From NCBI GenBank assembly GCA_964106915.2, contig OZ066916.1: a DNA stretch of 64,000 bases. One strand, written 5' to 3'. Both the position numbers and the translations under genes were made by a program. The notes under the pieces are model-generated. The model was not told the DNA's origin and made no database searches. It saw only the letters and a program-made list of their open reading frames with translations. Below are positions 5,001-51,401 of this stretch, piece by piece; positions within the stretch are counted from its first letter, which is position 1, and each line of letters begins with the position of its first letter. Origin of the DNA: Podarcis gaigeae (Eukaryota).

Positions 5001-8000
5001 TTTGACACTGTGACATCACTGAGGGAAGCACAAAGCCAATTCAGAGCAAGGGCAATGCTTCCTGTATTGCATTGACCTCACTCTGGATGGTCACAGGAGG
5101 GAATGCAGCTGCCACCATGAGCAGCTATTACCACACAGTCAAACAAGTTGGGAGAGAAAGGAAAGTATTGTCACCACACACCTTATGATAGATGCTTCCG
5201 GAAGGAGATGCTATATCACAAGTGAGTCTTTCAGACCATTTTTTCCCCTATGTATATATTTGGCACATGACGTTCTTCACATTTCCATTTTTTTCAGTCA
5301 TTATATTAATTACCACTCTGCCGCTTGCCATACACATCTGACCTGAGTTTTCCAATCATTTCCCGCAAACACTAACCCATCCTCAACAACCTTTTTTTTT
5401 CCCATTTTGGGTATGTGAACAGAAACTTCTGTACCTGAGTTCACACATACACACTTTTTTAAAAAAAGCTGAGGAGGTTCGCAAGAGTACAAGCCTTACC
5501 CAGCCACAAGGGGCAAAGTGGGGGACGGGGAGGCAAAATGGTAAAGGCAACAAAATCTTCTGTTATTACTGTTATTTATTTATTAACGTCCAATATATGT
5601 AGTGTAATTACAACTTCCCAAGGAATCCCCAATTACTGTGTGGCGATCTGGAGAGAGCGGATAATGTTTAATTAAATTTTAAGTCAGAGCAGAGCCACTG
5701 AAATGAAGTTCAGTTTGCCATGGTTATTAATTTCAATCGACCTACTCTAAGTAGGACTCTGTTGGCTTCAATCCAGCACGTCCACCAAACCAGGCATGTG
5801 ACAATCGGTGGAAACAGCTTTCTTTTCTGTCACTGGGGGCTGCTGGAAACAGAATTATTCGGTTGTGCTCAGATATGGAACAAACAGAGGTAGAGGTGCA
5901 GATTTTAGAGGTCACCACCACAGACAAACCACATATTGACAAATAAATATTGGCCATTGACCATGCTGGCTGGGAGCTAGGAGTCCCAATAAAATCTTGA
6001 GTGCCGCAGAACTGCCACCCCTGACGCAAAAGTTGCACTTGACACATGTCTCACAAAAGCATAAGGTATTGAGATATATATATATGTATATATACACATC
6101 CTCTGTTACCTGTTCTCTTCCTTGTCTACTGTAAAAGTTGAGAGACCTAATCTTGAACAATGACCTTCTCTTGGCCTGTTAGAAAAAGAAACCATATCAA
6201 ATTAAGCTCATGTATGTATATGTGTGTGTGTTTATCACACACACACAGACACACGTGTGTGCAAGTGTTTTCTTTGTCAGAAGCTAAAGCAAATCATGGA
6301 AGCAACAAATAATATAGTAACATTCCTCTAAAATAGGGGCAAACAAGTCTTTTTTCAGCCAGAACTCAGTTCCACCACCTCTCAGGTGGGTGCCATTGCC
6401 ATTATAAGAGAGCAAGGGAAGCGTTTATGGTGAGGGGTCCAGCACCTCTTTTTCTAGAAAAGTAGCTCTGGGTGCAAAGAATTCAAAAAGATTCTGAATG
6501 ATATAAGCTAGAACAGGGGTTCTAGGTATTTGTTGCCTAGAGCATTTTAACCAACCTGTTGGTTAGAATAAACCTGAGATCAGGAAGGCAGCGAAAACCA
6601 CAGCTTCACATCTGACCACCATCTACACAAGGTGTACTTCATTTATGCCACATAAATTGGGGTGGGGGAGGGACGTTTTTTCCAGCCACAGAAGGAGCAA
6701 GGTGGGCAACAGAATCAGAAATTCTCCCAGCAACACAATTCTGTGCATGCCTCCTGAGAAGTAAATACCCTTTGTGTTCAGTGGAGCTTACTTCCCGATG
6801 TGTGTGTACAAGGTTGTAGCCTAACATACAAAAGCAATGAAACCAGTCTCTTGTGCAGACTGTTGATGGGTGTGGGATTTGAAGGCTAGCTCTTTCCCCT
6901 AAGTCTGATAAAAATAGGTGAGGAGGAAGAATTCAGAAATTCAGTTCCCCCATGATGTAACAGCAACACCCTGTGAGCTTGCTGATGATACATTTCAGCT
7001 TTTTCAACATCTGGAAATGTTAGAACGAGGAAGAAGCATTGTCTTGTCTGCCTTTATATTAAAACGGAAGATGACACGTGTGAAACCTTTGCTAATGTAA
7101 AGAATAAAAATGAGACCTGCAGCTTTAGGGCCAATAGAGGTATGCTCAAACGATCCTATGAGATGATAGCAGCACTACTCACGGTCCCGATATCATCTTC
7201 GTAACTCGTAACCGGCTTGTAATAGGGGGATCCCGAAAGAACTCTCCACGCCGACAGACCACAGCTACTTGCTTTGGACGCGCCGGATCCCTCGCCATCC
7301 ATTTCGCAGCCACCAACGATCAAAAGCCTATTGCAAGCAAGAGGAATCGAATCTTGAGTTTGGCATGCTCCACCTCTGTTCTGAGCAATGAGCAATCGCT
7401 TTACAATGAACTGCAGCAAGTTTCTTTGTATTAAGATTACCATGTCTATTATATTATATGAAATGGACAGGTTTCAATGGAGCGCTAAGGGAATTGTTTA
7501 GACCACCAAAAAATAAAAACAGGAAGACCCCAAAATTGTTGAGCTTTTCTTAAGAAAACCACCGAAACTGTTGAGTTGCGTTTTTTTTACACCCCACGAT
7601 TTTTTGATTGATTTGTCCAAAGATGTGGGACGAAGCGACGCCTTTTGCTAATTCACCCTGTACGTCAATTGCGCCTTTAAAATCCAGGTACTGTCTGGGA
7701 CATATGACAGCCCTAAGATTGTTCCATCAGCACAAGGATTTCTCCTTGACCATCAGAGGGATCTCCCCTCTCTTGGGCCCCCTTGCTGTTCTGTGTGTTT
7801 TTTCTCTACCCTCCAGGGTGGATTTGGGGAAGGCACAAGAGGGGAGAGGACGTTCCATTGAACTAGCGGGAGTCACGGGGTCACAGAATCAGAGTTGGAA
7901 TGCTCCCTCAAGATCCAAGCCCCTGCAATACAGGAATATGCAGCAGCCACAAACAGGGACCGAACCTGCAACCTTGGCGTTATCAGCACCACGCTCTAAC

Positions 8001-11000
8001 CCACTGAGCTATCTAGCCCTTGTGTTAACTTTCCACTAGCAGAGCAAGGAAGTTGTATTTGGCCATATATATTTTTGTTGGGAAGCAGTTTGCAATTTCT
8101 GAAATAAATAAATAAAAACAGGCACTTGCCATCTGCGATGACTTGACAACTGCTGAAATATTTACAGCAATAATTCCACACTTGGGCGTATCAGTTATAA
8201 CATTTACTATTTCAAACCGCTACTCAGAGCAAGGGGAAGAAAAATCATGTGGATTTTAAAATATTTTTAAACCTCCAAGGCCGCAATCCTGTAAACACCT
8301 ACCTGGGAGTAAGTCTCCGTGAACTAACACTATGGGACTTACACCATGCACAGGATTGCACTGTGAATTCACCTAGCGGGATATATTTCAAAGTAATTGC
8401 CTGCTTTAATTCTTTTTTTTCTTCCAGAAATCCTCTTCAGATAAAAATGTGAAATAGGGGTGTATGAGCATTATTTTACCCAAATAAAATCATTAAATAA
8501 AAAGCCAGATTACGCATATTTGATTTCAGTTGGCAAAATATCACCATCTAGTGGTTAAATTATATACAGAAGTTTGTAAATAAATGGATTTAAACCCCCC
8601 CCCAAAAAAATACTCATAACTATTATAGATCAACAACAACAAAAATGGATTCAGTAATTGCAAAGAGGTGTTAAACAAATCCTTTTGTTAGAGAAGAAAT
8701 GGGCAACAAGCTGGTCTTGAGAGATTCCATTTGCCGTGTGAAAGCAACACATGCACGTGATACTAACCTGTATTTATAGTTAACTATAAAATATAGGTTA
8801 GCTTTAATGCTACATCCAAAACTTGAATCAAATCAGGCACAGAACTGGTCTGAGCTAGCAGCATAAAGCATTTCATCTTGATAAGTCTTAAGTAAAGGTT
8901 AGCAAAGAATTATTTTTGGAGATTCCAAAATGCAGAAATTGAAGATGATATTTAATTTTGGTGCATGCATTATCTACATCTTATTGGAAAGATGTGAGAG
9001 AAGCAATTTATAGCTGATTTTATTCTACTCTTAGATCCTTTAGTGTTTCTTTTATGGTACTGAGTAAAAGTCATAACAGGTTCACAAAAACAGTAGTTAA
9101 CTTAATGGCAATGGTTAAGAAGAGAAACAGTCCAAACCAAAATTGGTAGGGGGACTAATAAAGAGAAATGAATGGTGTAATATGAACATCATTTCCTACA
9201 TTTAGTAGGGTTTAAAGTTTTACTCTTCTTGCTGATTATACTAGATCCTGTGAACTCAACTCCTCTAATGGGAAGTTTGCACTGGTGGAAAGGGAGTGGG
9301 TGTGATTTTCACTAATTCCTCTTTCCCTCTACAGTGCCCTGCTCCCAAATCCCACCAGCCCCAGTCAATATGGCCAATCATCGGGGGGGCAGTAGTCCAG
9401 CAAGACCTAGAGAACCGCCTATTCCCAATTTAAGCATGCCACCAATGGTCAAGGGCAAACTCTAGCAAGAGGACAAAGTCCAACAGATAAAGAGCCAGTG
9501 TGAACTTACTCCCATTAGCAATAAATGGTGACAGCTGTAGGAGTGCAAATATACAGAGTGTGGGTGTCAGTTGGGATTGCTATGAGGAATTATGAAATAT
9601 GAAGCAAGCCATTGTGTCAGCAATGAAAGCATTGCGTTGACTGGGTTTCATTCATTGACAATAGTTTCTGATCGAATCTCCCAAGCCTCTCCACCTCTGG
9701 CATTTGCTTTCTCTACACCTGATACTGTAAGTCATGTAACACAGACCAGTTGCCGGCTGCTGCATCAGGCACCCTAAGTAATTAAGATGATAGTTTCTCT
9801 AATGTTCCCTTCCTTGGTTTTGTTAATCTTAGGGCCTGGAAATAGTTTCACAGGAGGGTGATAAAGATACCTATCTCCTTGCCACCCTGCCTCTCCTGTT
9901 TACTCCTATTTATGATCTCCGGAGTTTCCTAAAAGCATTCCCCTTCGCTTCCTCTTTTATTTATTCTGAATTGCATATGCATGCTCAAGTAGGAAATTAG
10001 CTCTTTGTAGTTTTAATTTTAACTTTGTCCCACATGGGGTTTTTTGAAATGCTCAGAGGAAATCTGATTGGTTCTTATGTACACTGTGTAAAAAGTTCTT
10101 TTGTGAATAAAACGACCTGGGCTGGAGGGTGGAGAGGAATTATTATTAGTACGTACTCCTCCCAGAGTCTTGCTGGTCAAGCCTGTGTGTGTATTCTATT
10201 AATCAGAGTCTAATCTTTCCTTTGCTTTGGGAATGCCAAAGACAGCAAACCATTCAACCCTGCCACAAATTCTGCCTCCCTTGAGATTGCCACAAATCAC
10301 CATTGCCACAAATCTTCTCCTAGACACTTGGGAATATTTGATGCATATATCAGTGGTTCCCAAACTGTAAGGCACTGGGAATTAGTGCAAGGCTTTTCAT
10401 GAGAGGGAGAGATACTACAGAGGTGTTGTCCTTCTAGCAGCAAAGATTTGACATCTGGAGGCTTTACATGGGCAGGAAACTGTAAGCAACACCTCCAATC
10501 AGTAGGAGGGCTATTCCATACTTCCAGCGCTTAGTTAGGTTTCAGTGCCGTGTCTTAGAGGAAGTTCCCGAGAAAGGTCAAATCTACTTTAGAAGCCTGT
10601 GCTGTTGGTTTAACTTGCAAAGTTCCTTCTGCCAACTTGTGGCAGCAGCTCAAAGTTGGAAAAAGCCTTACTGATGGAGAAGAAATTGACCATGACAATG
10701 AGCATATGGGGCTTTCCCCCCTTCTGCCTTCTCTTCCTGTCTGGCAGGCTTCAGCAGGGAGTCCAAGATGATATCTCCTTGTTCTTTTCTAACCCCAAGT
10801 GTTGGTTTAGCTCTCCAATCCACACACAGCAGCCATATGGAAGCGTCCTGTGCATTTGCCTGCTGCTGCTGGGTTGAGGAGCTCAGGTGGGTAAAGATTA
10901 GAAAAAGGCCCAAGCTGAATTCATTCGAGTTCATAACGCTAGCAGACACCACAATATCATTTATAATTTAAGCGTCTCGTCTCAGGATGGGAGAGATTTA

Positions 11001-13190
11001 ATGAAAGCTGGAGTAAAGCTGCCATATCAGGTTAGACAAAAACCCTGTTCCCGCAGAACAAAAGAAGACATATGTATCATTGCAGCACATGCTTAACATT
11101 TTAAACAACTCTTCACAGAGCTGGCGAAGTGCAGCACAAAGCAGACGGGAGCTATATTAAGAGACCAAGACGCAGAGCTTTCAAATGATTCTTAGAGCTC
11201 CATTGAGGGCCACAAAGGAGGTCTGAGCTCACTTATGAATTATTAACTTTTTAAAGGACTGGACAAGAGAGTCAATAATACCAAAAAAAGAATAACCAAA
11301 ACAAGCTGACAGATAGCCTGAGGCCATCAAGTGTCCAGATACTTCCAGCTAGTTGAGTTGAATTCCTGCACCTTTAATTCCTTTAATTTAGTAGTCAATG
11401 GAACCGAGGGAATAAAAGGATCATGGATGCAACACCTACTTGCTCTCTCCCTCTTTCTTTTGTGGAGAGCAGGCAAGCAACTATTATACTCAAACAGCTG
11501 TTCAAGCTCTACCTATCCTTACTGAACTTCTAAGATAGGGTAGCCAAGTTTGTCCCCTTGATACGCTTCAGGCTCCAAAAGTAGCTCCAGGCAGCATGCT
11601 CAATAGTAAGGGGTGATGGGATATCTGGAGGGCACCATGTTGGTAACCCTATATTGAGAGATAAAAATAATATCAAGTTGGAGAAACAGTACAGTGGTAC
11701 CTCAGGTTAAGAACTTAATCCGTTCTGGAGGTCCGTTCTTAACCTGAAACTGTTCTTAACCACTTTAGCTAATGGGGCCTCCTGCTGCCGCCACGCCACT
11801 GCTGCACGATTTCTGTTCTCATCCTGAAGCAAAGTTCTTAACTCGAGGTACTATTTCTGGGTTAGCGAAGTCTGTAACCTGAAGCATCTGTAACCCGAGG
11901 TACCACTGTATTATAGACCCCGTTCTGGTGTAAGTTAATAAATGTGCCAGTAAGACAAGTCAGAATCTTAAACTAACTTCATACCTCGGTTTAAAATCCT
12001 GGTTTGTCCATTACAGTCATACAGTGGTACCTTAGTTTACAACCATGATCCATTCCGGAGGTCCGGTTGTAGACCAAAACAGGTTGTAACCCAAGGTGCG
12101 CTTTCGCCAATGGGGCCTCCACACAAAAATTGGTTGTAATCCAAAAAAAGGGACACGCACTTCCGGGTTTGATGTGGTTGTAATCCTAAGCAATTGCAAA
12201 CCAAGGTACCACTACACCTTGGTTCTCGAACACCTCGGTACGCACACGTTTTGGCTCCTGAACGCCGCAAACCCAGAAGTAAGTGCTTGCAAACATTCTT
12301 TGGAAGCTGAACATATGACGCAGTTTCTGCAGCTTCCGGTTGAGTGCAGGAAGCTATTGCAGCCAATCGGAAGCTGTGCCTTGGTTTCTGAACGTTTTTG
12401 GAAGTTGAACAGACTTCGTGAATGGATTCCTTCAAGAACCAAGGTACAACTGTACTGGTAAACATAGTTTTCCACATTGGGTGTAAGGAAAACTCTGTTT
12501 AGCTAAATATTTCCTCAGTTAAACATGGCAGGCAAGGAAGGTAATTGACCACACAGAGGATGCAGGTGAAAGGTTAATGCATACCTCATCTTATGAAGTC
12601 ATGGTATCTTCATTCAAATGGGGCCATTTTAAATTATTGAGCTATATACAGCGATATCCCTCAATTCACAAAAGAGTCTTTGAACTAATGGTCAAAGTTA
12701 CGGATTTTGTGCCACAATAGTTTGAGAACGAAGACGGAGGAGAAGTTTCATTGCAGTGGTGAAATGACTTCTACTCACACAAGGACTTTGCTGGACACAA
12801 ACCAGTGTCCTGGATGAAAGCGAAGAATATTCTAATACTGAAATGTGACAAAAATGTCTCAGCAATAGACTCACACAGGAATACAGCACTGATGAATACC
12901 AATTATAAAATGTTAAGAATTCTAGCAGGAAGATTTAATCTAACGTTAGATTATTGTAGTCAGGGAGAGTGTTCTCAGGTTTTTTAAAAGAAAACAATTG
13001 AGAGAGCATAGAAGGGAAATGATCCATATCAATTACAGAGCAAAAACACCTGCAGTGCAGTTCTTTGCTGGGACCAGAAAGGCATTTGGACACATACAGT
13101 GAACGCTCTTTTGTGAAAATGGCACTAAAAGCAATGAGATTTTAGGTAAATGTTTTAAGACAGTCAAATTTCTCATTTGGTTCATCAACT

Positions 13191-13241
<51 letters not shown>

Positions 13242-16200
13242 AAACTATCATCAATGGGCATATCTCAAAATCTCTTGTACCATAGGGAGGGATGTCAGGC
13301 AAGGTTGTTGCCTTTCAACACTGATTTTCAATTTTGGGTACAAAAATGTTAGCAACTGCAATAAGGGAAGAAAATACCATAGCAAGTATTTTCCCACAAA
13401 ATATAGTGGCGTAGGAGAGCTGAAAATAATGCCAATATATCTCACATCTGGCAACTAATGCACCCCTTTTCAGATAGTACATGGGTAAAAAGGTAAAGGT
13501 AAAGGTACCCCTGCCCGTACGGGCCAGTCTTGACAGACTCTGGGGTTGTGCGCCCATCTCACTTAAGAGGCCAGGGGCCAGCGCTGTCCGGAGACACTTC
13601 CGGGTCACGTGGCCAGCGTGACATCGCTGCTCTGGCGAGCCAGAGCCGCACACGGAAACGCCGTTTACCTTCCCGCTGGTAAGCGGTCCCTATTTATCTA
13701 CTTGCACCCGGAGGTGCTTTCGAACTGCTAGGTTGGCAGGCGCTGGGACCGAGCAGCGGGAGCGCACCCCGCCGCAGGGATTCGAACCGCCGACCTTTTG
13801 ATCGGCAAGTCCTAGGCGCTGAGGCTTTAACCCACAGCGCCACCTGCGTCCCCAGTACATGGGTAGATGAGCCTAAAAAGCCAGGACACAAACTTTCACA
13901 GTCCTCTAGCAGATATGATGACTCATTAACCAGATGTCATGTAATTAGCGTTAACTCTGGAAGTGTATCCTTGATTCTGACCAAACTAAGCCTCCTAGAG
14001 CAAAATATAACTCAGGAGGCTTTGTTTAGTCAGAATCAAGTACAGTTGTACCTTGGATCTCGAACAACTTGCGAGTTGAACATTTTGGGTCCCAAACACC
14101 GCAAGCCCAGAAATGATTGTTCTGGTTTGCTAATGTTATTTGGAAGCTGAATGTCTGCCACGACTTCCACAGCTTCCGATTGGCTGCTGGAGCTTCCTGC
14201 AGCCAATCGGAAGCCACACCTTGGTTTCCAAACCGTTTTGGAAGTCGAATAGACTTCCAGAACGGATTCCATTCGACTTCCAAGGTACAACTGTACACAT
14301 TCCTAGTTAACGTGAAATACATCACTTCTGGAAAAGGAGCTACCATAGCCACTAGAGGATCGTGAAAATTTGTGTCCCAGGTTTTTTAGACTCATCTACA
14401 GAGCCTAGAACTTGCCAATCAGAAGGTCAGCGGTTTGAATCCCCGCGAAGGGGTGAGCTCCCGTCGCTCGGTCCTTGCTCCTGCCAACCTAGCAGTTTGA
14501 AAGCACGTCACACTGCAAGTAGATAAATAGGTACCGCTGCGGCGGGAAGGTAAACGGCGTTTCTGTGTGCTGCTCTGGTTCACCAGAAGCGGCTTAGTCA
14601 TGCTGGCCACATGCTGACCATTAGGTCTGGGGTCCCTTTACCTTTACCCATGTGCTATCTGAAACCAAAGGGGGCACAGTGGTTGCCAGATGTGATTTGT
14701 TTTTCAGCTCTCCTACCCCAGTCATAATGCTGCAATCCTAAACCCCCACTTACTTGGGTGTCAGTCCCATGGAACTCAACAGGACTTTACTTCTGAGTAC
14801 ATATACTCTGATGATGATCACATCTTACACACATTTAACTTGAGCGATTTCAACCAAACGCCGCTGAAGGTGTGCCAGAGTGTGACTTACCTCAAGGGTT
14901 TTTTGTATGTCCTCATTCTCCGTTGAGAGACATATAAAAAACGAGGCCACAAAATGCACAACAGCCTCAGACAGCATGAAAAAGAATTTGACTGCAAAAT
15001 TGTGAATCGCAGCTCAAATCCCCATAGCTGCCGTACTCCTTTTCACACTTTACTGGGGAAGGTAGGTGTCTTCTCTGGGGGACTTTAAAGATTATTGCAA
15101 CACACGAGGGAAGGGGGCGGAACAGAACAATATCAATTCTGCAAGATGAAGAAATAATCTGCACTCCCTGGGAAAATAGATTAAGCTGTCAATCTGCTGT
15201 CAGCTGCCATCACCACAGAAATCTATGGGGAAAGGAAGTCTTGGTGAAAAGGAATTGAATGAGGGTAATATTTGTAAGCATAAGGTAAGAAGAGCCTGCT
15301 GGATAGGCCCAGCAGCCTGTTTTCACGGCAGAAAACCAGATACAGGGGGGAAACCCAGAAGGGTCTAAGCACACGAGGAATCTGCCCTCCACAGATTTCC
15401 AGCAACCCATGTTCAGAAGCATCACTGCCTCCAACCACAGAGGCAGAACATAGCCACTGACACTAGTTATTGGAAGCAGAGTTCCAAACATACGGAAACA
15501 AAGGAGAACGGCGAAAGGCAGATTACGTCCCACCACTGAGCAGTATAGTCTTAATGAGCTTGTCTTTCATATTCGCTATCTTAGCCAGACATGTTACAAA
15601 GAAAAGAAGAAGAGCAGAAAGCTCTGGTTATCCAAGTCAGGCAGCTCTGTTTGCACAATGGGGGGAATTCCAAAATCCACAACCAAGCTGGGCTGAAAAA
15701 TAAATCCGTGTCGAAACCAGACAGAAACACACTGGTGATATTCAAATCCGTAAATGTAGTTGCAAAAACTATGAAGACCAGACAGACACACAACCAAAGG
15801 GGGAGCGCATGACGATTCTGGGCTCAGGGGGGGAAAGCTGTCATTTGGAGGCTGGGGATTTCTGCCAGCAGCTCTTGTAGGTATTCAATAGTCATTTTTA
15901 TCCATTTTAGCAGCATAGATTATCTCGCTAGTAATAAATGTTTTTAGTGAGAAGGACTAACGTTTCTGCATCCTTTGGAGGCTCTTCTGTTATCTTTGCA
16001 ACAACAGCCCTTCTATTTGTTTGAGAAGGCCCATAACTTAGTGGTAGGGCATCTGCTTTGCATTTAGAAAGTCCAGCTTCAATCTCTGACATCTCCAGGT
16101 ACAGCCACACAGCAGACAGGCCAATAGCTTAACACAGTATAGAGCAGCTTCCTGTATCCTGTATTCCAGCTTCAATTATTGTACCCAGCAAGTCAGTTAA

Positions 16201-19200
16201 CTGTATCCTGCTACACAGGAACTATAATGTAAGGGTAGAGGAAAGGGGATTGATACTGTGGAGTGAACTGTACTGCCAAGCTTAGCTATGTTCCCCTCAC
16301 CTTGAAGGAAGCAGGAATCAAGGCCTTTGTTCTCCCCCAGACTATGTGAAAAGCTCAACCGCACAGCTCTCACAAGTCACTCTTCCAAACTTGGGTCTTC
16401 AGCTGTTCTTGGACTACACTTCCCATCATCCCTGACCACTAGTCCTGCTAGCTAGGGATGATAAGAATTGTAGTCCAACAACAGCTGGCAACCCAAGTCC
16501 TTTACCAATAATCTAGGAACTTTCACCATTTTGAAACAAAGCTAAGTTTTACTGCCTGTGCAGCGATTCTGAAGCACATGAATCTGACCTTCAGAGAGAT
16601 TGTAAGTAAACCATATTTATACTTACCAAACATGTGGTCTTTTTCCTAGGGAAAACTTTGGGACTCACTTTAAAGGGCACATTTTAAAGGGCTAACAGCC
16701 TATATTTCCACATCTACGTTCCTTAAATCTCTGCTAAGGTTGTCTCACCAAAGAGTACTTGCCCCCAACTTGGCACCAACCAAATAAGGCTAACATCTGC
16801 CAATGATAGGGTGCAAAACAATGGATTTGAACATTAAGAGAAGAGATCCATACAGAAATGGAACAACTTGTCTTGTGCAGCACCAACCTCCTTGAAGGTT
16901 TTGAAATAAGCCAAACAGATCTTTCTGAAATACCTTAGTTTTTAGACTCTGCCATTTCAGAGCAGCAATCTGACGTAAATGACTAAAAAGTTCCAGCCTA
17001 TGCCTGTTTACTCAGAAGGAACAATGTATTCAGTTATGCCTGCTCTCAGGTAAGTGTGGAATGGGATTGTGGCCTGGGCTGCATTTCTCCTTGATTTTAA
17101 AATAGCTGTAGGAATTGGAAGGCAAATCGAAAGGACCCTGAAGCTTTATCAGCACACCTGATGGGACAAACAAATACCTTCCGCTGGTCTGCCCACACAG
17201 ACCCACCAATTTCTGGAGGATCAGTTTTCTAGGCATTTCTAGGTCCCCTGGCATGCCTAGAACAAACTGCAACTATGCTAATCTTTCCACCACCCCCACA
17301 AAAAATGAAACAGAATTTCACCACTTTCTGAAAATGCCAGCAAACTCTTATCTTCCACCAGCAAACCATTTGCAACTTATAAGATGTGGGGTGGGGGAAT
17401 TTATGGCCTTTTCTAAAATGCAACTGNNNNNNNNNNNNNNNNNNNNNNNNNNNNNNNNNNNNNNNNNNNNNNNNNNNNNNNNNNNNNNNNNNNNNNNNNN
17501 NNNNNNNNNNNNNNNNNNNNNNNNNNNNNNNNNNNNNNNNNNNNNNNNNNNNNNNNNCGGTGTGCAGGATGATAAATTACAGCAGTTATTCCATGGACAT
17601 AATGGCTGCTGAAGCTGAAACTGTGGCTTTCTTGGAAGCTCTGATTCGTTCCAACACTGGACAAAAGTAAAGGCATTTATTTACTTATTTGTTGCATTTA
17701 TATATTGCCCGTCCACGGTTAAGTCCTCCGGGCAGTTTGCAAAATAGTTAAAAATGAAACAAATATAACTATTCAAAAAAAGTTAAAATAACAATATGCG
17801 GTGGAAATCATCATTTAAGAAGGCCTTCTTATAGACAGCATGGAGGCAGCAACAAGAAATCATTTCAAGACCAGCATTAAACCAGGAAGGATAAAAAGAA
17901 ATTGGTGCAAGAATTTTAAGAGCAAAAGTGACTGTACGTACTTGTTGGAAAATAAATGGCCTGGGGCGGGGGATAGATGTTTACCTATTTTTTGGCAGGT
18001 GCAAATCAACAATGTGAGAATGAGGCACTGCATAATTGAGGAGCCAGTGCCAAAAGGTCCCTGTCCCTGGTAATCACTTGCCTCCCTTCATTAGGTGAAT
18101 GAACCTAAATAAGGACCTCTGAGGGGGATCTCAAGGATCAAGCAGAGAGAGGACAATCCCTTTGGTCAATCTGGTCTCATTCCCAAGACATTTAGGGCTT
18201 TAAATGTTGAAACCAGCAGTTTGAGTTGGGCCCATAAACAGACTGCAAGCCAGTGCAGATAACAAAGCGCAGGCATGATGTGATCACAATTGCAACGCCC
18301 CTGCTAAATGCCCTATTCTGGACCGGGGGGGACGGGGACGCGAGTGGCATTCTGGTCTAAACCACTGAGCCTCTTGGATTTGCTGATGAGAAGGTTGGCG
18401 GTTCGAGTCCCTGCAGCGGAATGAGCTCCCATTGCTCTGTCACAGCTCCTGCCAATCTAGCAGTTCGAAAGCACACCAGTGCAAGTAGATAAATAGGTAC
18501 TGCTGTGGCGGGAAGGTAAACAGTGTTTCCGTGCGCTCTGGCTTCCATCACGGCATCCCATTGCACCAGAAGCAGTTTAGTCATGCTGGCCACATGACCT
18601 GGAAAGCTGTCTGTGGACAAACACCGGCTCCCTCGGCCTGAAAGCGAAATGAGCGCTGCAACTGCACAGTCACCTTTAACTGGACTTAACCGCCCAGGGG
18701 TCCTTTACCTATTCTGGACCAGCTGAAATTCCCAGACCATTCCCAAAGGCAGCCTCGCACATAATTATTTTTTTTATATTCCACTTATGAATCACTTCCC
18801 AAAATGTATCCCAAAGTGATTTCAAAGCAGAAAATATAATGCACTGCAATAAGGTTTGTTTCACTAAAGTAAGTTAATCCCAGTTAATACTGTTGGCTGG
18901 TGCAGAGGCATCAACCGAGCACTTACCTGACAAGGTAGCTCTTCAGTTCGCCACGGTAATTGATGACCAGCAGCTCGGCTGACCATTGGGCGCTCGCTTT
19001 GTATTCCAGAAAAATCAATCCAGCAATAGCATAGGTCAAGTCTCCTGGGAAGCTAGCGCCCTGCACCAAAAGAAAACATTTCTTAAAAACAAATTTCAAA
19101 AGAATTTTATTTGGCAAAGGAGTTAAAAAACAATTCCAGGAATGAGAAATTTGTTTCTACACTGAACCAAAAAAATAAAAACGAACGCCATTGTTGTTTG

Positions 19201-22200
19201 GTGGAAACACTGGGAATGAATAGGGTTCAAATTCCCTCCTGGGTGACCTGGCACCAGTTGCTATCTGTCACCTTAACTACCTCACAAGGTTGTTGTGAAG
19301 ATAAAATAGTGAGGGGAGAAACCAGGTAGTCCACTGGCAGCTGCTTGGAGGCAAATTGGGTTATAAATATAGAAAACACGGTAGCTAGAATATTATATGC
19401 ACAGAAATGGAAAGAGGAGCAGGTCCCAATGAAGGAAGAGTGGCTTTTGAAATGGCACAGAAATAGTAGAGCCGACAGAGAAATTAAGAGATCTGAATTA
19501 CGAACTTTTCATAGAAGAATGGAGGCCTTTTGTGGAATATTTTTAAAAATACTACAATCGAATGAAATTGCAGGATCTGAGATAAAAGCAGCAGAATAAA
19601 AATGATAAAGTAACTGTAACAGAGAAACTTTTTTCTATTATATAAAGCTATAACGCAGTGGAAAAGGTTTGAGTAAAAATACTGCAGAAATGAGGGTGGG
19701 AAGTCAATTCATAAAACAATGTAACTATTTGATATGATGAATGCTTGAATGCTTGAAAAAATTCATAGAAAAATGTGTTACACAAAAAGTTTATAGAAAA
19801 TAAAATAAATGTTTGCGCTAGAACCAAGCTTAGGACTAGTGCGATGGGATTTTTGTCTCCTCTTCTCCCCCTATCTGTGCCCTGTGCTGCCCACAAATCT
19901 GCTCTGAAAGGTTATGGGAGAATGCCAAAAAGGTTTAGGGGGTGCATATGCAGGCATGTTCTGTTGTGCAAGGAGAAAGGTCCAAGATCATGAGAGCTGG
20001 AGTCCAATAACATCTGAAAGACCACACATTTCCTAACCCATTTTAGAACATATCCCTTCTTAAAGCTTTCAAGAGGTTACAATGCTGTAATCACCTGCCT
20101 ATTAGAAAGCCTAAATAGTAGGTTTAGGATTAAATAAAAGAAAAGGGTGAAAGCTGCCACAACAAGCAATATTTTCGACAATACACGAAGCAGCAGACTA
20201 GTTCAGATGTTAAACCGCATCCCCTTGGAACAGCTATTTTCAGAGGGCCACAACAAAAGCAATTCCACCCTAAAGCACTGACAGCTTTGCTGCCACAAAT
20301 AAAAATTAATGTACTTCTGTTTGGCCATGTGAAAGGCTGAATGGAAATTCACCAATAAACATGCAAAGCGACCATTCAACAAAATGAGCCATAAAGCGCT
20401 CACAATGCAAGCTCTCTCTGCATAAGTACGTCACATTAAAACCGTAATAGCTAAAAAGCTTCCATTTGCATGCAAATTGGACTTGTAAAATCCGGAAAAG
20501 AAAAGTAAATACCGGTGAAATGACCAAGAGTTCACTGCCGACCAAATCAAACACTCGCACGGTCCCTGTGCTTTCGCCATAGGCGAGCAAAGTGCAGTCG
20601 TGACTCCATGCTACACGTCTCCATTGCGGGTTGGGATCCTTCGGGACTATGGGGGCAGAAAGAGACATGTTAATAAAAGCAGAACAAAAGGTGTATATGG
20701 TCAGTGGTGCTACTTTTACTTGCAGTAGGCTGTGAAGGGGGCAGTCTCAGCTGCAATATCAACTGATCCACACAAATAGGGCTGCCAACAATTTTAGGGT
20801 CTTCCGAAAGAAAGCTCAGTAACTTTTGGGGTGTCCTGGCTTTTACTTTTTGAAATATGGCAACCCTACACACAAACAGCACAAAAAAGCTACCACACGG
20901 CAGCCATATCATCACTATCACAAACCCTAATAAAATATCCATTCACCAAAAAAGGTATAGGCAGGCTTTGGGTAACCCTGAGGTTTGCAGAAGTAAATAA
21001 ATAAGATTAAATCTAATGCAATTGTGTATATGAAAAACAGCCCAATGACAGCAGGCATGTTATGTGGTCACAATATGCTGGAATAAAAACTGAGGATTGG
21101 GGCAACTGTAGCTGGGGCTCGAGGGTAAGAGAATGAAATTTTGTTAAAGGTCTCACTTGTTAATTGCTACTTTTCGTAGTTTACTTGTGTATGAAAAGCT
21201 ACATACCTTGACATTTCCCAATGACAGATCCAAACTCATCCTTCGCAGACCTGCAGGATTTGAATTTCATATATAAAACTTGATGCAATGTACATTTGTC
21301 AGGATTTACGGCTGTGTCGCTAATTCTCTTGTCTAAAGCAGAAATGGGGCTCCTGCGACCCTCAAAATGTCGTTGGACTCAAACTCCCATGAGCCCTGAG
21401 AGTCAAGGATAATGGGAGATGTAGTCCAACATGTTCCCCATCCCTGGCTTTAAGAAAATGAACATGCACAAACAGATTCTGGTGCATTAATAGCAAACTG
21501 AATTGTGCCAAGTATATATGGATTCTGACCAAACTGCGGGAGGAAGTGGAAGACAGGAGTGCCTGGCATGCTCTGGTCCATGGGGTCACGAAGAGTCGGA
21601 CACGACTAAACGACTAAACAACAACAACAACATATATGGATACTCCAGTTGCCATCGGTTCGAGGAAGTGTGCTCAACAGTCAGGGACAATAAGAGTGCT
21701 AGTCCAACAAAATTTAAAGGGCACCACATTGGCCACCTCTGCTGTAAACACAACACAAACTTCACAATGAATCTGACATAAATAAGCTGTTTCTATAATA
21801 ATAAGGTAACTTCCTTGCGATTTTAGCACCTTATTTCACGTGCAGGGGATATCTAATTCAATAACATGTATCAGATCTTAAAGCTCTTTAGATTAAATAT
21901 CAAAACAAAAGGACAGAAGTTTCAGACCAGTTTTTTCCCCATTCTCTGACTTGGAATTTAACTAAATACTGGCTGTCTTCCAATGATCAGATGTAGCCAT
22001 TTCGTTGCTTCCTTGACACAAGCAGCAAAAGGAACCAGGAACCAACAGCGAGCTCTCTATTACTTCCATACTGGAAAACTATGCTTAAGGCTTCCAAACA
22101 AACCAGGATATGAAGGCACAAATTAAAGTTGGCTTCCAAGTCCTGGCATGTTTGGAAGCCATTATCCATAGTTCCCAGTTTGGACATAACTTGAAGCTAT

Positions 22201-41452: not shown

Positions 41453-44400
41453 TTATTATTATTATTATTAATTATTATATTGCCTGCCATTTTTGCAGAT
41501 CTGATATGTGGTTGCTTTAGTACCATTCTCAGCCTTTGTTTTACTTACGTGACCATCTGATCAGGGATCAGTAATAACTGTGGCAACATCACAGCAACTT
41601 CAGTCAGATTTTAATACCTGATCTAACAGAGTAAGCAAAGCCTGCTCATCGTTCTTAGGCTGAATTGCAACTTTTCTTGTCTCCCAGCACTTCACAGCAA
41701 GTTTTTTTGTTTTTTTTTGCTTTGCATTACTTATGCATCACTAGTTGTGGCAGAATGTGGGTGTGCAGCCCCATCCACACTCTTCTGCAAGTAATCAACT
41801 GTGTAGCACTGGATCAGGTGAGAGACTGGCAGCCTTGTTGCCCTTTCGCCAGGGATCTGTTCTTCACTTCTCCCAGCAGAAGAGGTGCAGAATGTTACTG
41901 GGGAAAGAGGTTGCTTTTATGGAGGGTTCAGAAACCTCCCCCAATTTCAGTGTGATGCTAATCAGTAGTGCACAGTTTAAAGAAATTTTTCTGTCCTTTT
42001 CTCAAAGGAGTTTTTTTAAAGAGGAAAGCAAATTTCTAGTGTGACAGCAATCCAAAAAGTATATGGTCTGCTGCCTTATAGCATGATCGCTACTGTGCTA
42101 TGAACCCTTAAAAAAAATTATTTTACCGTACTTTTCGCTCAATTGGACACAGTTTTTTCCCTTCAAAAACTGAGGGGAAATGTGTGTGCGTCCTATGGAG
42201 CGAATGCAGGCTTGTGCCATAGTCGCGCGAAACCCCTCCGGCAGGGAAAGGCTGCACGGGGCTATGGCTTCTTTAGCTCCACACAGCCTCTCCTGGCAGG
42301 GAGATATTGCGTGGGGCTAAAGAGGAAGCCAAGGCAGCGAGTGGGATGGATTTTTTTTATTGATTTCCCCGTCTAAAAACTAGGTGTGCCCTATGGTCCG
42401 GTGCGCCCTATGGTGCGAAAAATACGGTATTTTTTTTGCTTATCTTCCAAAAGTATAGTTAGGAGATAGTGGAGAACTGTTTGATTCTAATATTTAAAAA
42501 ATATTTTATATTGTTTTATGATTTGTTGTTGTTATTATTATTATTAGGTACTGACAAGTTTGGCTTTGGCTATGGTGGAACTGGAAAGAAATCTCATAAC
42601 AAACAGTTTGATAGTTATGGGGAGGTATGTTTTTCTTTTTCCATTTTACCAAAGAATAGAATGATTAAATGTTGTAGTGAACCGACAATGAAATACATAA
42701 ATGTAGGTTAAAGTCATGTAGCTCTCAAAAGGAGGAAAGAACAAATGCTTTTAACAGAAATGTGCATGGTGATGTTTGGTTCGATGAGCATTAATTTTCT
42801 GTGGAGTATAAATGTTGGACGTAAGCTAACTTGGACTGGTATATGGGCATGCGGTAGTCATGGGAATAGCCTACCCATTGTAATTGTTAGCGACAACACC
42901 CTGAGTTGGGTTGGTTGTATGCGTTCAGTTCTGACATTCCAGTGGAAATGTTGCATTTGGAGTGTTTGCAGTGGTATGCTGAAATAGAAATCCTTGGTTC
43001 ATTGGAGAAGCCACTAAGTAACAGCTGCAGCAGTGAGACTTTTCTGGTGGCTACCAGTTGCCCAAATATTCGTGTATGGTTTTGTTTCCCCTGAAAGTCC
43101 ATAATTCCCAACTAATTTACACAAACTATCTATCTAGAGATCTGCAGAAGTTGCATTATCCATTTTAAACCTCCTCCACAGTGTGGGTTGGAAGCTGGCG
43201 GGTACTGGTATTCTGCAAGTTTATTTTACATCTCCAACAAAATTCAGTATTGATAATTAGAGATACTTTATTTCACTTTATATCCACCTTCTAAAATGAT
43301 AAGGTGGCCAACAATAATTAAAACAAGCATGCCTGAGGATGGAACTAGTAGCTTTAATGGCAGTAGCAGTTCTGTCTTCATTACAAGATAACTGATAAAA
43401 TTTGTTCTATTGAGTTGATTTTTTAATATTTATGTATAATACTTTTGTGTGATCCATAACTCTTTACAAAAGGCTTGGATCCAGTGAAGTGCTGTTGGAA
43501 GGGAGTTGGTGGAAGGAGACTTTCCTGTCCATCTTACCCAGGAGCACACCCCCCCCCCAAAAAACAAAAACACTTCTCCTGAGAACTGGGGGACCATCCT
43601 GAATGGGATGAGCTGTGGTGATGCAGAATGAGGACTGCTGAAAATAGGGCAGAGGCACCTTCAGTGCGCAGAGGGGAGCTCCTGCTCACAGAATGTGCTT
43701 GCACTCAATTTTCAGTGATCTTCACCTCTTCTGGGCACAGCCTTCCTTTTCAGGATATACTTACAGGAAGGAAGCTGGCCGAGGGACCAGAAGCAGGAAA
43801 ATCTCTTACCAATGCACTCCTGCACTTTCCAGTATCCAAGCCAAAACTATTTAAGCCATTGTGATAAGTAATGTGCTCCATACAACTGCTGATGCTTTAT
43901 ATTCCTGTAAAACAAACTACTTTCAATCAACCTCCTTAATTTTATTATCATTATTATTTCTTTTGGTAGGAATTCACTATGCATGACACAATAGGCTGTT
44001 ATGTAGATGTCGATAAAGGGCAAATCATGTTCTCCAAAAATGGTAAGCGGTCTACTTCCCTCCCCCCATTTAAGTAATGGGTTAAATTCATAAAAAAACA
44101 GTCAACATAATGCTTTATTTCCCCCCAGGCAAGGACCTTGGACTTGCGTTTGAAATCCCACAGCACTTAAAGAACCAAGCACTCTTTGCAGCCTGTGTCC
44201 TCAAGGTAATTTCTGACTTTCTCCAAAGCACACGAGACTCATTCTAACCAATTAAAAAAAGATGCATACTCTGCTTCTATCATGCTGGACCCTCCTTCCA
44301 TTTTACCAAGCGTTGCTTGTGGAACTTCAAGAAGTTCCATGTAGCACAATGAGAAAGGTGCTGCTGGAAAGTTCGGGTCCTAAGCTTCCATGGAACTAGT

Positions 44401-47400
44401 GACAGGGCTTGAAAAATACCTTTCTATTTCAAGTGTTTAAAGATGAAACCTGCCTTACTGATGCTCTAAACAGGTGAACCGCTTCTCCTTAAAGGACTAG
44501 TTTTAACACCTGACCTCTAACTTGCAGCAAACATCACGTGACTTTTCTATAAACTCCCTTTGACAATCTTTACGCAAGCTTTTATGCTGTGTGTATTCTT
44601 TTAGAACGCTGAATTGAAATTCAACTTCGGCGAAGAAGACTTTAAATTTCCACCCAAAGATGGCTTCGTTGCTCTTGATAAGGCTTCCGAGGGTAACTCT
44701 GTGAAATCCCAGCATGCAGGTACGCTCGGGGGATGCTCAGGTGTAGGAGCCGCCATAAAAAAATGTCCTATCACATAAAGTCAAAAGCTAAAAAATATGT
44801 GTCCAGTCGTCAACTCAGTACTAAGGGAACCTTCTCAACATTTCCTATTTCAGGAAGTGCACAAGTAGCCCAAACAAAGAATCAGCCGAATGCTCCCAAA
44901 GCCTTGATTGTGGAGCCTTCCAGGGAACTGGCAGAGCAAACTCTGAACAACGTGAAACAATTCAAAAAATATGTGGATAATCCTAAATTAAGGTACAATG
45001 AAATTGGGACAGGGGGAGTCATAGGGTGCCGCTGAAATCCCCATGATTCCATACACAATCATGCTCTTCTCTCACTCTGGTTGGATAAGATGATTTCACA
45101 GCACGAGATGTAATCTAATGTATGTTGCTTTCAGGGAACTCCTAATTATTGGTGGAGTTGCTGCAAGAGAACAACTTTCCGTGTTGGAGCAAGGGGTAAG
45201 TTTTAATTGCTCTTAGTTTGCGTTATATCTACAAACGTATCTATCTCTTTAAAAAAAGAAAAGGTGCACAGATGAATTCTAGTGAGTGTGTATTTTTTTA
45301 AAAAAAGTATGACCCCCTTGCCTTTCCATTTCACAATGTCTATGGAAACACAAAAGCTAGTATTTTGGTATTATTTTAAATAGTGGATTGTTTATTGTAG
45401 TGGAAAGTACTTTGTGACTGTGTGTAGTGCAAAGCAGTGTATAATTTTTGGGAATAAATAAAAGCAACATAAAACTGCATTAAAGCAGTTAAGAGTCTGG
45501 AAGGCAGATGAGGAGCAATATAGCTGTTGGTTGAGAAATCAGTAGTTTAGCTGATGGTGGCTTTTTAAGTATGAACGAGATAGAGTTGTAAAGCACTATG
45601 TACAGTTAATGCCTCTCTTGCAATATTTGTATAGACCTTTAAAAAGACCATTAAAGTTTTATCAAAGCAATAATTTCTGTGTGTACACAGTGTGTTTCAG
45701 ACATAATCTAAAATGCTTGAAAGAGAAATATTTCCTTAGGCTACATTCCAAGTGTTAGTGTTTTCATATTATTTTGGCATGGACACAGTATACTATTGCA
45801 CTATTTACATTTTACAGGTAGACATAGTTGTGGGAACTCCTGGAAGACTAGACGATCTCGTGTCAACCGGAAAACTGACTTTATCGCAAGTTAGGTTCCT
45901 GGTTCTTGATGAGGCTGTAAGTGTATAGAACATCTTTTTTGAATAGCATATTTTAAAAAGTTATATACAGCATGCACTGATGAATTACCCCTTTTTCTGG
46001 GAGCCTTCTCCTACCAAAATATGTGAGGCTTGTTGGACCTTCCAGGGAACAGCAGTGTTGAGGAATTGTTGAAAATTCCTTCCGAGACATAAGGGAAGAG
46101 ACATCAGTTGGATGCCAACCCTCAGCTTGGGACTCTGGTCTATGTGAGTTATTGGCAAATGCAGGGGGCAGACAAGCACTTCAGAGTTGGGACCCTGCGT
46201 GTCCTTGCAAGATCCTGTGACTCTTAATAGCCTAGTGTGCGTCCAACTACCATTGGTTTTCTGAGCCCCTTCTAATCTGACTCTCAAAATAAAAAAAAAT
46301 TCCCTCCAGTAGACCTTAGAGACCAACTAAGTTTGTTATTGGTATGAGCTTTTGTGTGCATGCAGACTTCTTCAGATACCTTGGTGTGCATGTACACTTC
46401 TTCAGATTCTTGGTATCTGAAGAAGTGTGCATGCACACAAAAGCTCATACCAATAACAAACTTAGTTGGTCTTTAAGGTGCTACTGGAAGGAATTTTTTT
46501 ATTTTGTTTCGACTACAGCAGACCAACACGACTGCCTACCTGTAACTGACTCTCAAAGTGAGTGCAGAACAAATAAGAGAATTGCAACTGGTCAGCGGAT
46601 GACTTCCATCTGCCCCTGTTCACATTTTCATCTGTCAAAATACCTTCATAGCTTCTTCCAACCAGAGGAGGAGTTGGTGGGTTTAGCGAACCCCTGTAAT
46701 TAGTCAGGAGGACTGTTCGTTGAATAGTTGGATCTACTACATACTTTTATTTCAGCTTTAAAACACATGGGTAAAATACCTTATTGAGACTGTGTAATAC
46801 TCTTTTTGTACAGGATGGCCTTCTCAGCCAGGGGTATTCTGATTTCATAAACAGAATTCATTCTCAGATTCCTCAGATAACTTCAGACGGGAAGAGGCTG
46901 CAGGTAAGAGGTTCGCTTTAAGTTTTCCTAGTTGACCTTTCCCCAAAACTTAGCATAGCTGTTGTATGTACCAAATGTTGTTCGCTCAAGCTTCATCATC
47001 TCTAAGGAAACCTAATAACTGTGCACAACGTTTTCTGAGCCACTGTGAACTAGGAACTTGCACAATTTAGTTTCTATTGCTCTAGCTGAAATAATATATT
47101 TCATAATAAAATAGTGTGGGGGTAAACAAAAACTGAGAACACTTCCAAGTGTCTACTCAAATTGATGGTGTCCTCAGGTTCCTGCTGTTTGGCATGAAAA
47201 GCGAAAGCAAGGAAAGTAACACTAGCAAGAAATTGATCCATATTTCTGGAGGAAAAGAGGATTGTTGAGAAGCCTTGCTGGCTTCTTCCTTCTCTCTTCT
47301 TTTCTTTCTGTCTCATACTCGTGCACCACAAGGCTAACCTTTATGGATGGAAGACTTTACACACAGAGTATGCAATAACAAGATTTTGCATTTACTCACT

Positions 47401-50352
47401 TATTTGTCTGCATTTCAGTGGAGCATAATGCATCAATGTCCCAGTGTTGTGCTTAAGCATCCATGTACCTTACAATGACTTGCCTAGGCATTCTGCCAAA
47501 TGCCTCAGTTCTTAATGTGAAGATTTCCCATACATCACTCCCAGTGCACCAGATATAAATGGCTGAGCAGCTGATGCTTCTGCCAGTACTTGTCTTGACT
47601 AAAAGAGGTTTATTTTGTAAATTTTACAGATTGACAGAAGTCAAGAACTGTAATCGCAAAGGGGCTTGTGACATGTGCAAGCAACAGTAAAGGTCTTTAC
47701 CCTTTTCATCTCTGCTTGTTTGTTGTTGTTTTTAGGTGATTGTGTGTTCTGCAACTCTGCATTCATTTGATGTGAAGAAATTATCTGAAAAGATCATGCA
47801 CTTCCCCACTTGGGTAGATCTGAAAGGAGAGGATTCTGTCCCGGATACAGTGCACCATGTTGTTGTCCCTGTAAATCCCAAAAATGACAAATACTGGGAA
47901 AAGATTGGTAAAAATCACATCAGGGTAAGTAGTACAAAATATATTGGAATAGACAGAATTTTTAAAATTCCATATTATAGTTTCAAGATGCACACAAACA
48001 TTTAAGTTGGAATTGTGGAATAAAGGACAAACGAAATGGGATTCCATAACTCAGATTATGAATGTTAAGAACATTGTTGTGAAATGCCTGTTTCAGCTTC
48101 AGTTCAGGAACTCAAAACTCCTTGGACATACTGTAGGATGTGTGGTGGGCCTTACAACCTTTTTATTTTACTGTAATAATGTCCTATTTCCTTACTGAGG
48201 TTGGGAGGTTTGGTGTGGACTCCTCTCACATCCAAATCTCCCTGTGGCTGATTGACATCCGATCCTCAAATAAAATGTGTTGGAGGGGATTATTGGGTTG
48301 TTCTTGTTGTTATTACGTATTTTGTGTCGTCGTTTTTTGTTGTGCACAGCTCTGAGACCTGGATGTCTGTGTTTGGCTGCATCATTTCAATCTCAACCTT
48401 AAGATTGGGCTACAAAGCCATGTGGCTGCAGATAACTGTTTTTTAAGGATTACTAAACAATGAAATATAAATGACTGTGTGCTTTCTTGCAGCCCTGCAT
48501 TCTTTTGCATTAGCTCTGAATGCCTTTGGTCACTTCTAACATTTCAAATTTTACTTTTCAGACTGATGAGGTGCATGCAAAGGACAATACAAGACCTGGT
48601 ACTAATTCTGCAGGTAACCAGTCATTTGGTACACACATAGCTCAGTTGGTTAGAGCGTGATGCTGATAACACCAAGGTTGCAGGTTCAATCCCCATAAGG
48701 GAAAGCTGCATATTCCTGCTTTGCATGGGGTTGAACTAGATGATCATCAGGGTCCCTTCCAACTCTGATGCTTTTGTATTTGTAGAAGCCAATGGCTTTA
48801 GCAAAGTTCTTCAGTAAAGGAGAAGCCGCATGAATCAATAAAGCAACATCACTTTACTTCAGTACTAAGATCTTGTTACAGTTAACCAAAGCAGGGGGCT
48901 AAATCTTTGCATAGTAAAATTTAAAAAAAATTCCCACAAGATAAGACTCACCAAATGGAAAATGTTAATACCTTTTAACTAGCATTTCTTAATTAAGATT
49001 TAGAACATAGTTGAAATCTATGGCTATCATTCTAGAAGGATGAGTTGCCTCAATTCAATGTTGTACATGGTGGCAGAATAAACTGTCATTTTTCAGTGTA
49101 CGCATGCTTAATACACTGTGTAGGAATAATTTATCTTCTTCTTTAGAAATGTGGTCAGAAGCAATTAAGATCTTAAAAGGAGAATACACTGTCCGTGCCA
49201 TTAAGGAACACAAGATGGATCAAGCAATAATCTTCTGCAGAACCAAGATAGATTGTGATAACATGGAGCAATACTTCATGCAGCAAGGAGGAGGTAGTAA
49301 TTTCATGCCTGTTAGGCTTCATTTTGTCTATTTGCAAGGTGATACCAGTTTGCAGATCTTTCCTCCAGGTTTGATTGATTGGTTCCAAATGGTAGTTTTT
49401 CATCCTGGATATTTTCCATAATGGTTAGATTTCCTCCTGCTTCTGCTGTGTACATGTAACACCTTCTCAAAGAACTAGAGGTGGTGGTATAGCTCAGTTA
49501 CAGCCCTGTAAAAAAATCTCCCTCACAGCAATGAACTACCCTGAAGATACTTTTTTAAAGTTTTCCTTAATTAAACTAACTTGCCCAGAAAATCTTCATA
49601 TGTGGTTACTCTCCTCTGTTAATTTGCATGGCAGTGGAGGAAGTCTGCAATTAGAATTGTTGCATGTTCCTTTGGATGGCCGCTTAGTTTGGTCAGCTAT
49701 TTATAAATTTGTTCAGTTTCCTATTTTCTGTTTTTCTATTTTATTTCATATTGCCCACTTCACCCAACACAGTGTGCCAAACTTTGACTTGCAGATGCGC
49801 TGCCTTTCTGATCCTTTTTGCTGCCAAGTTTGGCTTAGTGTGTCATGCAAACCATCATGAAAACTGCCATCTAATACAAAGGTTGCATAAAGATTTTTTT
49901 TTTTAAAGACTAAAACAAAGAAAGAAATTCCACCTTTCCCCCAGTGCAAGCTGTCTGTTTTAAATCTGGTGCCACATCACGTTTGCTTTAAGATAAAGCT
50001 CTCTTTCATACTTCTTCATAACTAGCATAACTAACAATGAGAGTCCTAATATACTGCTTTTGTTTGGTTTTAAGGTCCAGATAGAAAAGGACATCAGTTC
50101 TCATGTGTCTGCCTGCATGGTGACAGAAAGCCTCATGAAAGAAAACAGAATTTGGAGCGCTTTAAGGTAATGGTTAGGCCTGTGATGTTGAATAGGCTAA
50201 CCCAATAAAGCATTATTTGTTCAAGGGGGGGATTTTAAATGGTGAGACTATGAGATACAGCTTTTTATTAGGGAAAAGTAAGGAAAGATATCCTTCTAAG
50301 CACAAATAGTAGTTGTGTTTCTTCCTATTAAATTGTATCTTGAGCTTCTTTC

Positions 50353-50388
<36 letters not shown>

Positions 50389-51344: not shown

Positions 51345-51401
<57 letters not shown>

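Follow-up and report, generated by a model that had tools for sequence, protein, structure and literature searches.

The arms of an old palindromic DNA transposon carry a one-nucleotide hotspot for Sauria SINE insertion in Podarcis gaigeae

Sauria SINEs are found at one exact spot in approximately 20-25% of the arms of an old, dispersed palindromic transposon in the genome of Podarcis gaigeae, and these insertions represent approximately 100 independent events. The element was followed up from a single copy in a stretch of 64,000 nucleotides of contig OZ066916.1 (assembly GCA_964106915.2; hereafter the window), both arms of which harbor a SINE. Most likely, the arms carry a target site composed of a T-run, 9 nt and TA that Sauria SINEs have filled independently, probably through preferential nicking by the protein of Bov-B (RTE) elements.

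A palindrome with a SINE in each arm

Sequence inspection, a repeat scan and self-BLAST of the window delimited a set of nested inverted segments spanning 13404-14723 (Table 1). An earlier reading of the letters alone (the sequence-only reading) had described 2 palindrome arms, a SINE in each of them and a central MITE, and all of these were recovered in place, as were the full length and 12-bp target site duplication (TSD) of the left SINE and the 5' truncation and internal deletion of the right SINE. The arms are complementary to each other at 86% in their outer part, at 77% in their middle part, and at 25/27 nt in their inner part. A 10-nt loop (14001-14010) that had been proposed for the center is present as well; the family, however, has an asymmetric spacer of 17 nt instead, and the pairs closing the loop are partly peculiar to the window copy.

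The tails of both SINEs abut the same TACCCATG of their respective arm, and both SINEs carry an (ACCTTT)n 3' tail. We take them to be Sauria SINEs on the basis of this tail and of the name given in the sequence-only reading. While the left SINE has a regular TSD, the right SINE is flanked by a 3-nt TAC duplication only. At its deletion (14614-14628), a 14-nt piece is inverted relative to the family, reading as its reverse complement; this micro-inversion is enclosed by a 4-bp stem. The MITE, which we presume to belong to the Tc1/mariner superfamily from its TA TSD and its ends, has further copies in the window at approximately 12.2, 27.0, 36.9, and 59.5 kb.

Table 1. Features of the palindromic element and its host gene in the window.
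Feature	Position	Strand	Remarks
Host gene context, NBAS	7183..20644	-	exons 20513-20644, 18929-19060, 7183-7326
Left 3-bp target duplication of the palindromic element	13401..13403	+	ATA
Palindromic non-autonomous DNA transposon copy	13404..14723	.	441 bp insert-free; TAG..CTA-type ends
Left arm, outer part	13404..13487	-	outer TSD copy of the SINE at its end (13476-13487)
Left Sauria SINE, full length, young subfamily	13488..13853	-	12-bp TSD
Left arm, inner part	13854..13996	-	other TSD copy of the SINE (13854-13865); T-run located upstream in the Tn-TA site
Central 17-nt spacer	13997..14013	.	encloses the 10-nt loop 14001-14010
Right arm, innermost part	14014..14042	+	reaches the TA used by the MITE
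Tc1/mariner-type MITE, 251 bp	14043..14293	.	TA TSD
Right arm, middle part	14294..14399	+	closes with the Tn-TA site (T-run, 9 nt, TAC)
Right Sauria SINE, older main group	14400..14644	+	5'-truncated with microhomology, internally deleted
Right arm, outer part	14645..14723	+	begins at the target TA; contains the weaker terminal Tn-TA site
Right 3-bp target duplication of the palindromic element	14724..14726	+	ATA

Since exons matching the Pfam domain Nbas_N (E 4e-26 to 3e-20) flank the element, the palindrome lies in an intron of NBAS. Folding of 1326 nt on the NBAS strand predicted one long stem (-820 kcal/mol, with no shuffles at that length), in line with the long double-stranded RNA stem, a possible ADAR substrate, that had been suggested for the NBAS pre-mRNA. 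Inverted intronic repeats are ordinary and common, and we regard the locus in the window as an intronic by-product without demonstrated function. Elsewhere in the window (43970-55278, plus strand), a presumably DDX1-like DEAD-box helicase, whose SPRY domain was matched, has its exons head to head with NBAS.

The palindrome belongs to a dispersed transposon family

A 173-bp SINE-free piece of the palindrome retrieved 547 candidates from the genome, 40 of which were scored and yielded 55 matches at 75-89% identity besides the window, and an intact copy used as query retrieved 786 candidates. The insert-free palindrome, for which the sequence-only reading had left the choice between a family and a single copy, is thus multicopy and dispersed, which rules out a single-copy inverted duplication. 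In the alignment of copies, the palindrome is near-perfect, its spacer measures 17 nt, and its ends are fixed (logo of 132 ends). On average, arms are 87% identical to their consensus (207 hits), a value shared by the window element (approximately 87%), and the divergence between the 2 arms of the window is about that between any 2 copies of the family. An exact 17-mer at the filled site occurs 206 times in the genome and is matched by 34 of 78 sampled arms, from which approximately 470 arms genome-wide can be estimated.

Among 38 two-ended copies, 13 had an exact TSD of 3 bp and variable sequence, and 14 more had one with a single mismatch, compared to 1, 0, 1, and 0 exact duplications of 2, 4, 5, and 8 bp, respectively. 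Its multicopy nature, fixed ends, and TSD identify the palindrome as one member of an old, dispersed family of non-autonomous DNA transposons of the TIR/MITE kind. The hAT superfamily was rejected, as an 8-bp TSD was found in 0/38 copies, and so was Tc1/mariner with its TA-only TSD, as the 3-bp duplication lies beyond the terminal TA. The palindrome has a variable 3-bp TSD, very long inverted repeats, and TAG..CTA ends, and it may in its ends and repeats resemble AcademX elements, which have TAG-type ends and long terminal inverted repeats. As a candidate assignment, AcademX fits the 3-bp TSD (3-4 bp for AcademX in the available part of PMC10045372); a 3-bp TSD is also made by other superfamilies, namely, Zator, Harbinger-related elements, and Chapaev3, the latter with CAC ends (PMC3014272, in the part available).

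Most copies lack one arm: at 50 of 95 sampled sites, the partner arm is shorter than 30 nt, with breakpoints that vary and often lie just beyond the central hairpin. Three arms (L022, L023, and L325) share identical private changes and probably derive from a segmental duplication or else from a composite repeat of larger size. Furthermore, Tc1/mariner-type MITEs of at least 3 kinds recur at 2 TA positions of the arm, approximately 28-31 and 55-62 (about 10 cases, including L010, L149, L161, L165, L027, L168, and L228 as well as the window at 14041). These 2 positions attract a different class of transposase and constitute a further, weaker hotspot.

One spot of the arm is filled by Sauria SINEs

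With SINE-neutral queries, a Sauria SINE was identified at the target TA in 21 (sense) and 1 (antisense) of 96 arms, while 61 arms were empty and 13 carried something else. Similar proportions were obtained for exact inner-motif sites (9 of the first 30 listed), for exact sites (21 of the first 84 listed, in a hand tally by coordinate in which 84 of 206 were examined), and in an alignment-based count (31 sense and 1 antisense among 153 arms). These samples of 96, 30, 84, and 153 arms overlap, and all were drawn by queries without a SINE junction; the coordinate tally is preferred to a figure of 15/66, which skips sites present in earlier sets. Exact whole-genome patterns matched 25 filled and 37 empty sites. 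Since a full-length query is biased to empty copies and a filled-site pattern to filled ones, both were kept outside the occupancy figures. The enrichment of SINEs at the same site in other copies, on which the earlier idea of a hotspot depended, is therefore borne out, with 20-25% of the other arms filled, and SINE density in the flanks of the element appeared ordinary by eye.

In the unbiased sets, 17 two-site copies had no filled site, 9 had 1, and 0 had 2; among the 39 two-site copies of all sets, only that of the window is doubly filled, in agreement with independent hits. Filling of both arms in mirror orientation is expected by chance in about 3-6% of two-armed copies; the mirror arrangement of the window SINEs follows from the palindrome bearing one asymmetric site twice.

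In L025, L151, and L217, one kind of GC-rich element replaces part of the SINE, or abuts it, near SINE positions 233-294, and on the minus strand of L362, 27 nt beyond the site, an antisense SINE joins its tail to the matching CCCTTT of the arm.

The filled site ranks among the best Tn-TA targets

For Bov-B/RTE LINEs and Sauria SINEs, the available parts of PMC13295347 and PMC6007223 describe a Tn-TA signature, i.e., a T-run approximately 10 nt 5' of a TSD beginning with TA, and the former gives an (ACCTTT)n tail and a TSD of approximately 12 nt for Sauria SINEs; its supplements list target motifs that may bear on the hotspot. Our sample of unrelated SINE insertions (n = 157; like the background, drawn from a single contig, within its initial 9.2 Mb) reproduced this signature, with a T-run at -13 to -10, a purine at -9, C or G at -1, then TA, and a modal TSD of 13. 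The purine at -9, the C/G at -1, and a TA at +11 go beyond the signature as published in those parts of the 2 papers. Scored with this profile, the arm site reached 5.64 of a maximum of 5.84, and logistic models trained on the 157 unrelated sites placed it above 99.8% of TA sites. The motif was intact in 31 of 35 filled compared to 53 of 79 empty arms (p = 0.02). Sequence-specific nicking, 1 of 3 causes suggested in the sequence-only reading, is supported by this top-ranked match and by the more frequent preservation of the motif in filled arms. When filled and empty arms were compared position by position, no single base was decisive, and significance was reached by the joint motif test alone; on the 5' side, the low values at +11/+12 are simply due to TSD ends.

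Pairing between SINE tail and target, the second suggested cause, fared less well: TACC is found at 8.4% of SINE sites genome-wide versus 3.2% of the background (5.8% in its stricter class), but it is not enriched in the TSD-called sample (7/157 versus 4.4%), and its contribution appears weak.

One detection rule was applied throughout to compare fill rates. TTT-N9-TA sites were filled in 14,910 of approximately 5.2 M cases (0.29%) and those with TACC in 1,249 of approximately 168 k (0.74%), both denominators being extrapolated from 0.72 M strand-bases of background; the best generic class reached 621/25,118 (2.5%), and the hotspot 10/84 (12%, CI 6-21%, p = 4e-5). With an expected fill of 2-3% for the best profile class, the excess of the hotspot over generic best-class sites is approximately 5-fold (range 2-8). 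Wider models placed it only 1.4-1.9-fold above the best class, and their cross-validated fit was not better. Moreover, the fill of the generic best class is lowered by sites located in other, possibly younger repeats. The 2- to 8-fold excess is thus only partly accounted for. The ends of an abundant Tc1/mariner-type MITE (contigs C1-C2) make up approximately 10% of best-class Tn-TA sites and are filled in only about 1.5% (hand estimate from the first 100 entries of each listing).

The element itself provides an internal comparison, as its terminal TTT-N9-TACC site was filled in only 2 sense and 2 antisense cases among 164, and in 1 sense case among 81 with an intact motif. The hotspot is therefore filled approximately 10-fold more than a site of the same age in the same loci. 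This cold terminal site excludes an element-wide openness and demonstrates that the core motif together with a match to the tail is insufficient.

A possible symmetric target for both nicks

Given the unexplained part of the excess, the arm site could be a specific high-affinity target beyond Tn-TA, in which a two-fold symmetric pair of Tn-TA sites 13 bp apart receives both nicks from the RTE protein, a step toward site-specific targeting. The arm consensus is indeed exactly symmetric here, with a T-run at -12 to -10 mirrored by an A-run at +22 to +24 and TA at both 0 and +11; the modal TSD is 13 bp, and the mirror TA is the one used by the single SINE in antisense orientation (L225). Such a target would also explain why the site is filled approximately 5-fold more than the best generic class and approximately 10-fold more than the terminal site. 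However, the mirror site scores only 0.85, the downstream A-run is conserved no better in filled than in empty arms, and less than 0.2% of all Sauria SINEs are located at the site. Among unrelated sites, the mirror A-run showed no enrichment either, with AAA at +22 in 3/157 versus 3.4%. We therefore regard such a target as rather unlikely.

A general symmetric signature of the second nick was rejected, as neither a T-run nor an A-run was found at the TSD ends of unrelated sites, where TA at +11 alone was enriched (21/157 versus 6.3%, p = 0.001 uncorrected, 1 of 20 offsets examined); in one tally of these sites, TA at +8 was equally high.

In its most far-reaching form, which we put forward only tentatively, the extinct palindromic transposon may have spread several hundred near-optimal, two-fold symmetric Bov-B/RTE endonuclease substrates with both nicks specified by sequence, a true high-affinity RTE target beyond the published Tn-TA signature that would have served successive waves of SINEs up to the present as a standing landing pad.

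Insertion does not depend on the partner arm

The third suggested cause was accessibility of a cruciform. Extrusion of a cruciform or hairpin, or open chromatin, could expose the palindrome arms to insertion, and the gathering of Tc1/mariner-type MITEs at 2 TA positions of the element (approximately 10 cases) as well as the loss of one arm in many copies, as seen in unstable palindromes (partner below 30 nt in 50/95), would be compatible with it. However, the site was filled in 8 of 31 cases with a long partner arm versus 16 of 64 without (p = 1.0; partner-arm status is that of the present day, not of the time of insertion), and this independence means that a cruciform is not needed. Furthermore, insertions pile up on one nucleotide approximately 140 bp from the loop, the terminal site of the same arms is approximately 10-fold colder, and even arms with a present divergence of 12-17% have been hit by very young SINEs. 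Exposure of the arms by such structures is thus improbable.

Insertions are independent and younger than the arms

The 2 SINEs of the window differ from each other by 16-17% (raw divergence), which is near the divergence of the arms, so that the sister-SINE comparison proposed in the sequence-only reading does not discriminate by itself. Subfamily placement, by contrast, separates the pair, as the 2 SINEs belong to different clades. The left SINE differs by 0.6-1.4% from unrelated young copies, and exact matches to the 3' end of its subfamily number at least 15,695 in the genome; the right SINE differs by 10% from other copies of the main group, which comprises at least 27,275 copies. It should be noted that distances of the right SINE in the joint comparison are inflated by its deletion, with 10% and 16% representing the corrected values. 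Together with the filling of the same site in 20-25% of other arms, the placement in different clades supports 2 independent insertions into one hotspot in the window.

The same holds across the family. Forty SINEs from filled sites intersperse among 67 unrelated copies, and the distance between SINEs did not correlate with that between their host arms (rho 0.03, 780 pairs); the left SINE of the window and that of locus L019, for example, differ by 1.4%, and their arms by 13.7%. Site SINEs are younger than their host arms, as had been anticipated from the window copy, and derive from several subfamilies. Their TSDs measure 10-14 nt, and untemplated 5' additions and truncations vary between loci. 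Accordingly, it is very improbable that a single insertion was spread by transposition of composite SINE-bearing copies or by gene conversion between arms or copies: the near-constant position and orientation of the SINEs, the resemblance of the window SINE divergence (16%) to arm divergence, and the membership of most site SINEs in one main group with a poorly resolved internal tree would speak for it, but it is at odds with the youth and several subfamilies of the site SINEs, the uncorrelated distances, the heterogeneous 5' junctions and TSD lengths, the double hit at L075, and the 2 putative forms of the left SINE in one related sample, and for the window pair it is refuted by subfamily placement.

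Some junctions are complex. In L075 (1423-1944), where the site was hit twice, a 41-nt head-tail mini-SINE lies in tandem with a full SINE whose target duplication measures 37 bp, and the SINE 5' junctions of L078, L079, and L170 contain short repeated target segments, suggesting template jumps or re-nicking.

A survey of presence and absence in relatives, proposed in the sequence-only reading, gave a partial answer. The tail junction of the right SINE was present in contigs of 3 related organisms (3 of 4 sequencing runs examined). Contig joints across the right SINE were rejected as orthologous empty sites, as they derive from paralogous empty arms. For the left SINE, 2 contigs of one related sample show no mismatch to the junction; one of them runs into the SINE tail, and the other departs from the sequence at 13487. 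This tentatively suggests that the left SINE may be dimorphic for presence and absence in that sample.

Proposed mechanism and relation to known systems

In the reading that we favor, the Bov-B (RTE) protein that mobilizes Sauria SINEs would nick the arm sequence far more than ordinary DNA. Following the published model, ORF2 may bind the T-run and nick one helical turn downstream; the second TA, 11 nt further on, may then favor a second-strand nick that results in a TSD of 12-13 bp, and the 4-nt match to the tail may slightly aid priming.

The targeting rule (Tn-TA) and recurrent insertion at one nucleotide (L1/Alu in NF1) are already known. The hotspot agrees with the Tn-TA systems of PMC13295347 and PMC6007223 in the signature that our unrelated sites reproduce; as far as the available parts of these papers go, they describe a loose genome-wide signature, whereas here one repeat-borne site is filled in 20-25% of its copies. 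In human NF1, 3 sites were each used twice by L1/Alu insertions (PMC3219598, in the part available), which likewise represent independent insertions at an identical nucleotide by a loosely specific endonuclease. However, that case comprises few sites and the L1 machinery, compared to approximately 100 insertions at one site on approximately 470 arms by RTE here. Non-random nesting with a weak palindrome preference is described for plant LTR elements in the available part of PMC6911290, and both there and here one transposable element is preferentially hit inside another; the plant nesting is regional and weak, whereas the hotspot is confined to a single nucleotide and independent of the partner arm.

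As far as they are described in the accounts available, the site-specific non-LTR elements R1, R2, and Utopia resemble the hotspot in that a multicopy target is filled at one nucleotide and in one orientation. Another site-specific non-LTR element, Tx1L, resides in the DNA transposon Tx1D. However, only approximately 100 of at least 43,000 Sauria SINE copies, well below 1%, are located at the hotspot, and Sauria SINEs are therefore not a site-specific retroelement system.

Among the papers listed by literature searches, none reported this palindromic element, or a DNA transposon in which SINEs occupy a single nucleotide in one arm out of five; repeat databases may already include the palindrome as a family.

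The filling of one nucleotide in 20-25% of arms is far above the level assumed for a loosely targeted SINE, and it illustrates how one transposable element seeds hot targets for another, with no sign of co-evolution. The approximately 100 independent integrations with their junctions constitute a natural substrate for studying how RTE/Bov-B elements choose the first- and second-strand nick, a choice that the available parts of PMC13295347 and PMC6007223 leave open and for which they ask for assays. Furthermore, phylogenies based on SINE presence and absence assume that homoplasy is rare (PMC10670947, in the part available), and the hotspot arms are loci at which such markers will show homoplasy in lizards.
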